Numbered from the stretch's first letter, positions 54,491-56,708 are shown. The stretch: DNA of 64,000 nt from an uncultured Planctomycetota bacterium (GCA_963845755.1 CAWJTV010000041.1:718418-782417), one strand, 5' to 3'. Program-made: numbers and translations. The notes: generated by a model not told the origin, from the letters alone.

Positions 54491-54641
54491 TGGGTCGATA
54501 GGTGTCGGTTTTCGTGGTGTCAGGTCGACTGTTCAGGGGGGTTCAATGAAGAAAGCCAATCCGGTTGGCCTCGCCGCGAGGAATCGAACGGTTGGTGGGG
54601 TGCAGACCGTGTTTCTAGTTATTCGGCCGGAAAAAACTAGA

Positions 54642-55436
54642 GCCGAGTAGGGAAGGGGCGCCCGGCGGGCTCGATCGAGCTTCGGGTTTCCCCTTCCCCC
54701 TCTAAAATTCCGTACGGCGGGTTTTCCCCAGTACGGCTTCAAATGGACCGTCAATGGCGACCTTCGGCGAGGTCCCAGGGTTTAAGTGCCGTCCACATCC
54801 GCCCCAGGACTCCGTCTTATACGCCACCGCAGTGGGATCTCCCAGGAATACGTGATCCCCGAAGGGACGACCCGTTCTAGAGCCTTTCGGTTCAATGTGG
54901 CACGACCCCCAGCAACTCCCACACGTCCATCCCGAGGCCCTTGGCTCGCCGTCGGGTTATGTTGTCCCGACAGGTCATCGCTTACTACGGCCTCATCCGA
55001 GCCTCTGAATCCCTCCCCACCACTTATGAATTTGTGGCGAGGGCTGCTGCACCCAAGGAAATCGGCTTCGGGTGGGAATCCAGAGGGTCCCCAATTGACT
55101 CCGCTGGACTGTGCTCGCGTGCCGCCTCCCTTACCCCGGTGGCCCCAGAGAGTGCACATGACTGTTGCTTCCTCTCAGGTGTCAGCCTTCACCTCCAAGT
55201 TACGGGTTCGGCGACCACATTGGTCGTTTCGAGGCTGCAGAGTTCACTCCTACCATAAAAACCATAGGCATGGTTACGGCCCGCGAGCTGGCTAGCCCTC
55301 CTTTCGAGGACGTTTACGTTCGAGCTTTCGCTGGTCGGGTCACCCCGAGCCAACGTCGAGTATCACTACGTGGATAAACAGTCAATTTCCACGACCGGAC
55401 TTTCACCGGCAAGTCCAACGGCATTATGGGCTGCAG
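54642..55436 (-). ncRNA. ORF-less group II intron (795 nt)
   Basis: Domain V-like AAGCCGUACUGGGGAAAACCCGCCGUACGGAAUU (54740-54705); DVI with bulged A 7 nt from the end (CCCU-A-CUCGGC); 5' CUGCAGCCC; DI motifs AGCCUCGAAA and GCCGA...GAAGGC; no RT ORF. Confidence 0.88.
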
Positions 55437-55491
55437 AACTCGGTCTGACCCCGACCTCCTCTGATCGGCGACGACGGGCAGCGATCGCCGG

Positions 55492-56034
55492 TCATCCCCT
55501 TTTCGACCTCTTGACCTTTTGGGTCCCGCGCTCAGGGGGGATCTCGGATCGGAGCAATTGGGGCTCTCGGCCGGAAAGGATGTTCTCGATTGCTTCCTCG
55601 CCGGAATCCCCGAGGAAAACCGTCGTGTCGTCCGAGACACCAAAGACTCGCCCTGTCTCATCCTGGAGGAGCATGCAAGTCCCATACTGATAATGGCCGA
55701 TGGGGCATAGGGGGCGGACATCGAGGAGTCGTTCGACTTGACGCAACCCTCCGCCTCCCATCCCGCGGACCGCATCATCCGCGCAAAACTCCAGAATATC
55801 CAGATTCTTCGATTGATCTTCGTAACGAATCACGCGCCCGCCATAGCGGCGCAGGAAGTCGTGGGTTGCCGGCAATAACGAAACACCCTCATCCTGATAG
55901 GCTGTTTCGTAGACGGGAGTGTTCCGCTCTCGAATGGGAAACCAACCAGCGGCGCGAAGGTCGCTCTCCACCTGCTGGGAATAGGCGAAGGGACCCGTCT
56001 CCTGCTTTATCTTTCGCTTCAATCCACTTGCCAT
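55492..56034 (-). CDS. SUKH-3-like immunity protein
   Basis: 'LRAAGWFP.R', 'FLRRYGG', 'LCPIG', 'LLQDETGRVF'. Confidence 0.75.
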   Translation of the reverse strand: MASGLKRKIKQETGPFAYSQQVESDLRAAGWFPIRERNTPVYETAYQDEGVSLLPATHDFLRRYGGRVIRYEDQSKNLDILEFCADDAVRGMGGGGLRQVERLLDVRPLCPIGHYQYGTCMLLQDETGRVFGVSDDTTVFLGDSGEEAIENILSGREPQLLRSEIPPERGTQKVKRSKRG

Positions 56035-56078
56035 GGTCGAACATCCTCATAGATAAGGTCGATCAGTGTGCCTGGTGA

Positions 56079-56708
56079 TCAGGCGGTCCAAATCCTCCCA
56101 AGCTGGCTCCTCGACACGGTGACTCGACAGTTCGGGCATTGCGGGATGGGCCTCATGTCGCGGACTCTGAAGGTCCAAACATGCAGATCATGCTCCTGAG
56201 CGCCATCCAAGAGCGCCCGATTGAGGGCCTTGAACTCCGAGCAAGTCCGCGGTGATCGGGAGCCTACCAGCGTTCGCATCTGATGAGGCAGCACCAAGGG
56301 CAAACTTTGCTCTCGTGTCATGAGGCCGGTATGTACCATCATCCGAGACATCGAAGCAAAAAACCCACTCACTCCGTAGTATATCCTGTCTCTTCTCGTG
56401 TCGTAAACCACGGCGCCAACGGCTGAAGGACGAACGGCCGGAGGCAAGTGACTGAGACACCCCTCCAGAATGGCACCATAACTCTCGATCGCGTCGAGGA
56501 GATCTCGAGGTGTCCCGGTCAGTTGAATCTGGAGTCCTTGCGGCGAGATTTGCATCCACGGTTCAACACTCGATAAAACGGCAGCATCTTGAGGCAAATA
56601 AATGTTGAAATCCAACCACCTGGAATGACTTGGGGCACGAGTTGAGTATTCCTGCGCAAACAATGAAGATTTCTGCCTTAAGAATTGCAGCCACGGATGA
56701 TATGGCAC
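56079..56708 (-). CDS. YwqJ-like Zn-dependent deaminase toxin
   Basis: 'CSEFKALNRAL' (CxE) and 'PQCPNC' (PCxxC-like); directly upstream of the SUKH gene. Confidence 0.65.
   Translation of the reverse strand: MPYHPWLQFLRQKSSLFAQEYSTRAPSHSRWLDFNIYLPQDAAVLSSVEPWMQISPQGLQIQLTGTPRDLLDAIESYGAILEGCLSHLPPAVRPSAVGAVVYDTRRDRIYYGVSGFFASMSRMMVHTGLMTREQSLPLVLPHQMRTLVGSRSPRTCSEFKALNRALLDGAQEHDLHVWTFRVRDMRPIPQCPNCRVTVSRSQLGRIWTA

Follow-up and report, generated by a model that had tools for sequence, protein, structure and literature searches.

We analysed a 64,000-nt stretch of DNA from an uncultured Planctomycetota bacterium (GCA_963845755.1, CAWJTV010000041.1:718418-782417), referred to below as the window, with a focus on a 795-nt element on its minus strand (55436-54642). 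Upstream of the element and in the same orientation lies a SUKH-3 immunity gene (55492-56034, minus strand; PF14433, E 1.7e-14). A palindromic repeat begins 39 nt past the stop codon of this gene and is interrupted by the element, and a convergent AbiEii-like open reading frame (ORF) is found on the other side. The 5' exon share of the repeat (55437-55452) consists of GGGGTCAGACC and intron-binding site 1 (IBS1), CCGAGUU, the last 7 nt of the 5' exon (55437-55443). The rest of the repeat, namely the tail of its 5' arm, the loop and the 3' arm, forms the 3' exon (54597-54641). Read directly from the sequence, the element runs from CTGCAG at 55436 to CCCTACTCGGC at 54642, and the minus-strand junctions are GGGGTCAGACCGAGTT / CTGCAG...CCCTACTCGGC / TCTAGTTTTTTCC, where the slashes stand at 55437/55436 and 54642/54641. 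The element is a complete, intact, ORF-less group II intron with a six-domain architecture.

An initial annotation of the window had proposed an ORF-less group II intron of this size and with these ends, and both proposals held. The Rfam model RF02003 (group-II-D1D4-4) matched over its full length at 55412-55269 on the minus strand (69.8 bits, E 2.9e-14; gathering score 49), which places the 5' part of domain I (DI). The model of domains V and VI (DV and DVI), RF00029, gave no match to the element at E<=10 in the 6 kb searched, and none to seven further DVs of the element's type at E<=0.01. No Pfam match at E<=10 was obtained for the four longest ORFs of the element (54-169 aa, both strands).

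The element is a member of a multi-copy family whose ends are shared. In its own genome (14.27 Mb, 49 contigs), blastn recovered a 3'-truncated copy with 87% identity (C36:191067-191682) and a 25-nt 5' fragment on contig C1; all matches were copies of the element's own family, and no other related ribozyme was returned. At the DNA level, 32 of 121 genomes of the same taxonomic family, from 14 of 53 genera, had matches, and many of these were full length with 85-100% identity. The window copy and 32 copies from other genomes make up a set of 33 full-length copies. At the 5' end, 27 of these start with CTGCAG, two with CCGCAG and one with CTGGAG, two have small indels and one is cut by a contig end. 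At the 3' end all 33 read TACTCGGC (...UACUCGGC). The flanks are unrelated and vary from copy to copy, and the similarity ends precisely at CUGCAG and GC. Therefore, the C at position 1 (C1) and the terminal GC are neither sequencing errors nor private mutations. The other group II introns of the genome start with GTGCG 26 nt before the start of the same Rfam model and the element's family starts with CTGCAG 24 nt before it; the 5' registers are therefore homologous.

The way in which the intron recognizes its exons gives a separate view of the boundaries. Exon-binding site 1 (EBS1), AACUUGG (55201-55195), lies in the terminal loop of a DI hairpin (alignment columns 251-278) and pairs with all seven bases of IBS1. 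Both partners change together in other copies, for example AAAUAGG with CCUAUUU, UAUCAGU with ACUGAUA, and AACGACU with AGUCGUU. Across 27 distinct exon/EBS1 combinations, other phyla included, a mean of 6.37 of the seven positions paired, and 24 combinations had at least six pairs. When exons were matched with the EBS1 of other copies as a control, the mean was 3.32 pairs and 7.9% reached six. This count excludes duplicate combinations, inner units of tandem arrays, one copy cut by a contig end (L062) and two with 5' indels (L059 and L065). The EBS1-IBS1 pairing put forward in the initial annotation is thus borne out, and the covariation indicates that it guides insertion.

Two further contacts were found. 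The gamma nucleotide, in the J2/3 junction (intron position 439, window 54998; alignment column 474), forms a Watson-Crick pair with the last intron base in 17 of 18 aligned sequences, and does so with three pair types (G-C in 12, A-U in four, U-A in one); the sole mismatch is in L087. In addition, intron position 306 (window 55131) complements the first base of the 3' exon at 22 of 24 sites (A-T at 16, U-A at six) and is a candidate EBS3, assigned from covariation only. The three covariations are independent, and they therefore fix the ends of the intron. Two other assignments were tried and rejected. As EBS2 would, the loop that follows the EBS1 hairpin (GGCUGACACC) is complementary to GUCAG in the window, but in other copies it varies without tracking the exon. 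A delta-delta' pairing between the base 5' of EBS1 and the first 3' exon base did not covary, and position 306 was preferred.

The fold was predicted from an alignment of 18 sequences, comprising seven from the main clade, three distant relatives from the same family and eight records of named metagenome-assembled genomes (MAGs) from Verrucomicrobia, Deltaproteobacteria, Chthoniobacterales, Thermotogae, Chloroflexota and Alcaligenaceae. The consensus has six domains (DI, columns 7-374; DII, 375-473; DIII, 478-538; DIV, 540-750; DV, 755-781; DVI, 789-902) and 161 predicted pairs, of which 86 show compensatory changes. The structure of DIV is conserved and covaries, and no ORF remnant is visible in it. 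DVI (54645-54702) has seven helix pairs with compensatory changes and an unpaired, branch-type A at column 899 (window 54648), seven bases from the 3' end, and so the DV- and DVI-like structures and the bulged A described earlier for this element recur in the predicted consensus. The lower 3-bp helix of DVI is GAG/CUC in some members of the wider lineage and GGG/CCC in others.

DV (54703-54741) contains the triad strand AAGCC, a covarying 4-bp upper helix, a 2-nt CC bulge, a pentaloop that is GAAAA in nearly all members and an extra AA (54707-54708) in the 3' strand. The 3' strand reads GGAAUUUU in the lineage versus GGUUC in the canonical introns of the same genome. With the AA bulged out, pairing of the AGC triad is the usual one and 98.9% of cells are paired, whereas the canonical register, with G.A and A.A opposite the triad, pairs 74.4% and was set aside. 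We infer the AA-bulged form from this modelling; the bases concerned are invariant, partly because the sequence set was selected by those bases, and neither register is proven. The CC bulge and the GGAAU strand to which the initial annotation had drawn attention are present, but they are features of the whole lineage and not peculiar to the window copy.

The termini of the element, CUGCA...GC, differ from the consensus of a 5' GUGYG and a 3' AY, which is not strictly required, as RmInt1 ends in CC (PMC4238363); the wider lineage mostly has GUGCA or GCGCA at the 5' end and AC at the 3' end. Both ends could be called in 41 elements of the wider lineage. By first base and last two bases, 22 of these are G1...AC, five are U1...GU, five are C1...GC, three are U1...AC and two are A1...AC, and U1...AU, U1...GC, U1...GA and G1...CC occur once each; the G1...CC case (L156) is probably a miscall. 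The co-variation of the two termini that had been proposed is therefore present in part. G1 goes with a penultimate A in 22 of 23 introns, and a penultimate G is found solely alongside U1 (seven of 11) or C1 (five of five). However, the link is not strict, as the penultimate A is kept in four of the 11 U1 introns and in both A1 introns. The C1...GC cases all fall in one clade and therefore count as one event. On a tree built with the termini masked, rooted at the midpoint and without support values, the distribution suggests that the penultimate A was replaced by G at least three times independently, each time in an intron without G1. The first and penultimate intron bases are described as interacting in the second splicing step (PMC4238363, PMC3669008), and the pattern fits a contact that has been loosened and not strictly compensated. 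The lineage is a natural mutational series, with G, U, C or A at position 1, A or G at the penultimate position and a last base that covaries with gamma, and it bears on the first/penultimate contact which the second splicing step requires.

Most copies have a GGGGTCAGACC-like sequence upstream and UC-N-GGUUUUUU downstream, and the upstream part also occurs at empty sites. When the exons of the window copy are joined, they fold as RNA into one long hairpin of -40.3 kcal/mol, compared with -17.5 +/- 3.1 for 200 shuffled sequences (z -7.4), and as DNA the hairpin has a z of -7.1; the insertion point lies within its 5' arm. Excision of the intron hence restores a palindrome, as had been claimed. 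A strict pattern for empty sites found 11 in the 14.27 Mb of the own genome and none in the reversed genome, and GGGGTCAGACC occurs 29 times versus 18.6 expected from base composition. A site that a copy occupies in the sister genome is empty at the homologous position here (C27:326443), and the downstream flank is 84% identical. The empty sites show no target duplication. The target is therefore a real repeat with about a dozen empty sites; the repeated palindromic target of the initial annotation stands, but its description as abundant does not, because the repeat is low-copy.

In front of the target repeat there are often two to four incomplete tandem copies of its initial 15-25 bases, truncated to varying extents, a pattern that we call stutter (G000:C27:326330-326470, C42:26440-26520 and C1:3600-3760, where G000 is the own genome; also in the flanks of L055, L057 and L060). 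We considered stutter as a footprint of template switching during cDNA synthesis and rejected this, since the same stutter is seen at filled and empty sites and therefore belongs to the repeat and not to the intron. GGGGTCAGAC may resemble the inverted repeats of the Tn3 family.

The intron family has moved recently by RNA-guided insertion, because a sister genome of the same genus holds four copies that are 98-100% identical and occupy different sites. The window copy is 99.9% identical to its orthologue in that genome, which differs at one EBS1 base, and it has every column that is invariant across the 18 aligned sequences from several phyla. Two internal copies (L080 and L081) are 5'-truncated, starting at intron positions 250 and 341, and have intact 3' ends. 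Such truncation is what incomplete cDNA synthesis would give, but later disruption is equally possible.

Copies also occur in flush head-to-tail arrays (...CUCGGC/CUGCAG...) of six units (L072, G011:C77:78900-84800), three units (L073, G011:C81:52000-55600) and two units (L128). The eleven units differ at just six of 798 columns. In L072 and L073, the 3'-most unit carries the variant found at a single-copy locus and the 5' units carry another variant, which suggests repeated insertion at the same 5' exon junction and not one event. The explanation given for RmInt1 arrays, in which EBS3 pairs with intron base 1, was rejected for these arrays, because C1 would stand opposite the U of the candidate EBS3. 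In the wider lineage there is a flush tandem pair in one Alphaproteobacterial MAG record (L112:2768-4526), and in three others (L089, L098 and L143) a copy is nested in the DVI 5' strand of another copy, inserted about 11 nt past the DV of its host.

To place the family in a wider context, we scanned one genome per species for the exact DV motif AAGCCGTAC-N13-17-GTACGGAAT. At least 123 stretches carried it, and among the matches listed were Acidobacteriota, Alpha-, Delta- and Gammaproteobacteria, Binatia, Verrucomicrobia, Planctomycetota/Isosphaeraceae, Chloroflexota, Bacillota and others. Eighty loci were taken with their flanks and yielded 75 unique DV-bearing stretches. A recognizable 5' end lies 617-877 nt upstream of DV in 52 of the 75, and in five others a 5'-end motif or an Rfam DI match lies no more than about 1 kb away; a contig or locus end truncates 11, three are chance matches and four remain. 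No reverse transcriptase (RT) ORF was seen between DI and DV in the 75 stretches, ORFs being listed for the nine unexplained ones only. In one acidobacterial MAG record (L137:3400-6730), an ORF-less element of this DV type stands directly 3' of a canonical RT-bearing group II intron, and the one RT found belongs to that adjacent intron and not to the DV-type element. A covariance model of the DV matched 17 of the 121 same-family genomes strongly (best E at most 1e-10), with 28 copies in one genome and nine matches in a genome of the same genus. The element belongs to a large, widespread lineage that occurs in many phyla and has apparently been overlooked.

We next considered transcription. In all four of the soil or peat metatranscriptomes (three studies), contigs at least 85% alike covered the intron body only, with summed word depths from tens to thousands, and the flanking bins 54532-54613 and 55475-55650 had zero in each. 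DNA carry-over may be the source of the intron-body contigs. The share of the sampled words present in a run was at most 21%, and no exon-exon joint for the window locus was seen in the four metatranscriptomes, in which the flanks are uncovered and the organism is possibly absent. One 299-nt contig from one of the four runs (depth 19.9), in intron sense, covers DV and DVI as far as the branch A, after which it continues directly with C-C-G-C-A-G, as would be expected if reverse transcription had read across the 2'-5' lariat branch of a CCGCAG-type copy. As for the neighbouring genes, the SUKH-3 gene is preceded by a 209-aa ORF without a Pfam match (56079-56708), and the two (55492-56708) may form a toxin-immunity cassette.

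Taken together, the element is an intact member of a widespread group II lineage that is RT-less as found, and it probably splices, reverse-splices and is copied by an RT encoded elsewhere. The intron would be transcribed together with the 3' end of the SUKH-3 gene and would splice as a lariat despite C1 and the penultimate G. It would then reverse-splice into the GGGGTCAGACC-N5/UC site of the low-copy palindromic repeat and be copied into DNA by an RT presumed to be encoded elsewhere because the intron has none. The unusual termini of the element reflect the freedom of position 1 in the lineage (G, U, C or A), and a penultimate G arises only after the loss of G1. The supply of RT in trans would follow the conventional model as described in PMC2882425.

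Several observations weigh against this account. An RT gene was not found in any lineage member examined, and the cognate enzyme may not exist. The own genome has 42 RVT_1 matches, which speak for the availability of an RT; yet the covariance model gave one match in it, the window itself (150 of about 4,500 first-look candidates scored), and a regular-expression search of the same genome found no RT-bearing intron with this type of DV, only an RT-less fragment on C12 and an ORF-less intron on C13. In the predicted DV, an unusual AA stands next to the catalytic triad. Only one contig shows the lariat-like junction, and a nested DNA copy or a truncated circle could have produced it instead. Finally, the genome has unoccupied sites with a perfect IBS1 (C34:678387, C21:81366 and C42:25700) and only one full copy, and because of this the activity of the intron there may be low.

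Some candidate partners were examined and discarded. The C12 pentaloop DV is an intron fragment beside a non-RT ORF. Weak matches of the covariance model in other genomes are RT-bearing introns whose DV has a pentaloop and a CC bulge but a canonical 3' strand. One such genome is the related one with 28 copies (G011); in both copies viewed there (L208 and L209) the RT frame is interrupted, split by roughly 1.6-1.9 kb of other sequence, and L208 resembles the element in DV only. The C13 intron (L017, G000:C13:208950-209700) is a second, unrelated ORF-less group II intron, which starts with the canonical GUGCG, has a pentaloop in DV and scores 37.5 bits with RF00029.

The absence of an RT gene from the members examined, together with the recognizable 5' ends 617-877 nt upstream of DV in 52 of 75 stretches, would be expected if the lineage had no cognate protein and resembled the HYERs. 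Reverse splicing without protein, or hydrolytic cleavage of single-stranded or hairpin DNA, would then be finished by host repair or by any polymerase. The lack of a cognate RT-bearing intron in the own genome, a DIV that is conserved and covarying and not an ORF remnant, and palindromic targets able to extrude as hairpins agree with such a mechanism, and ORF-less, multi-copy class IIC introns that cleave DNA (HYERs) have been reported (PMC11754743, PMC12990946). However, the DV scan required an exact motif and its number of matches is a lower bound, so that RT-bearing cousins with a slightly different DV would be missed; the genomes that bear the family are rich in RTs, and one has RT-bearing introns with a similar pentaloop/CC-bulge DV; and the bulged A, the lariat-like junction and the second-step contacts of gamma-gamma' and EBS3 point to ordinary splicing. 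We regard this explanation as unlikely. Its broader form, in which a phylum-spanning lineage, long protein-free, proliferates as an RNA-only ribozyme with completion by host enzymes or any RT, is decidedly unlikely. If it were true, the AA bulge of DV and the variable first and penultimate bases would be adaptations to this way of life, with the flush arrays as its footprint.

It is also conceivable, but in our judgement very unlikely, that the window copy is a well-preserved recent insertion which no longer splices or moves. The own genome holds a single full copy besides a 3'-truncated one (C36) and a 25-nt fragment (C1), perfect unoccupied targets persist, and the sister orthologue already differs at one EBS1 base, all of which would suit a relic. 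On the other hand, the window copy keeps every invariant column of the 18-sequence set, pairs at seven of seven positions with its own exon, and is 99.9% identical to the sister orthologue, the other sister copies being 98-100% identical. That the element is no intron at all, but a structured non-coding RNA or a DNA transposon (miniature inverted-repeat transposable element, MITE) with the hairpin arms as inverted ends, is exceedingly improbable. Sequence resembling a hairpin arm on both flanks and the silence of RF00029 could be read in this way, but the copies have different flanks and are alike precisely up to CUGCAG and GC, an internal loop covaries with the exon bases and J2/3 with the last base, and the empty sites show no duplication. 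A splicing intron copied by an RT encoded elsewhere remains the reading that we prefer.

ORF-less, multi-copy, repeat-targeting group II introns are as such already known (TeI3; HYERs). In the literature compared, neither this DV type nor NUGCAG 5' ends were found described, although Simon et al. 2008 (PMC2525955) and the HYER paper (Liu et al. 2024) may include members. What appear undescribed in that literature are the DV type, the NUGCAG start with its variable first base, a lineage across phyla in which no examined member has an RT gene, and the blindness of the standard DV model to the lineage. At least one large census (PMC8919778) relied on RF00029, which misses the lineage's DV.

Class C and attC-targeting group II introns have targets linked to hairpins or terminators, insert after the stem and have an EBS1 of 3-4 nt. 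The element is also hairpin-linked, but it inserts within the 5' arm or loop and has a 7-nt EBS1.

A precedent for supply in trans is TeI3 of Thermosynechococcus elongatus, whose ORF-less introns are mobilized by the intron-encoded proteins (IEPs) of a 'driver', TeI4 (Mohr et al. 2010, PMC2882425). As described there, TeI3 and the element have in common that families diverged towards new targets and that twintron or nested arrangements occur. However, TeI3 arose from one ORF deletion and has visible ORF remnants and closely related RT-bearing siblings nearby, whereas the element has no ORF remnant in DIV, no RT-bearing sibling was found in its genome, and its RT-less state spans phyla. RmInt1 of Sinorhizobium meliloti naturally has a 3' CC instead of AY (PMC4238363). 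In the accounts of this intron (PMC4238363, PMC4075523), the non-consensus 3' end, homing into repeated DNA and experimental tandem insertions are likenesses to the element; unlike the element, RmInt1 keeps G1 and encodes its own RT, and its tandem insertions are explained by G1-EBS3 pairing.

A 5-nt DV loop is described as a hallmark of IIE/IIF introns (Nagy et al. 2013, PMC3753933). The element shares with them this loop, a compact IIB-like ribozyme and exon recognition dominated by EBS1, but those introns encode IEPs and the element has none to classify. The passages compared mention neither an extra AA in the DV 3' strand nor a non-G first base. HYERs are described as class IIC; group II introns lacking an IEP ORF are put at 0.4-0.6 kb (PMC11754743), and HYER1 at 637 nt (PMC12990946). 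The element resembles them as an IEP-less group II ribozyme with several copies per genome and a short guide of 6-7 nt. Going by these descriptions, it differs in its length of 795 nt, its full 7-nt EBS1, its IIE/IIF-like pentaloop DV and its position inside a hairpin. A truncated EBS1, insertion after a terminator stem and a length of about 0.4-0.6 kb, which mark class IIC and the HYERs, are thus lacking in the element, and the sole trait it shares with class IIC is that no EBS2 was found in it. The lineage nevertheless offers compact ribozymes with a programmable 7-nt guide, which could be tried as tools in the same way as HYERs.
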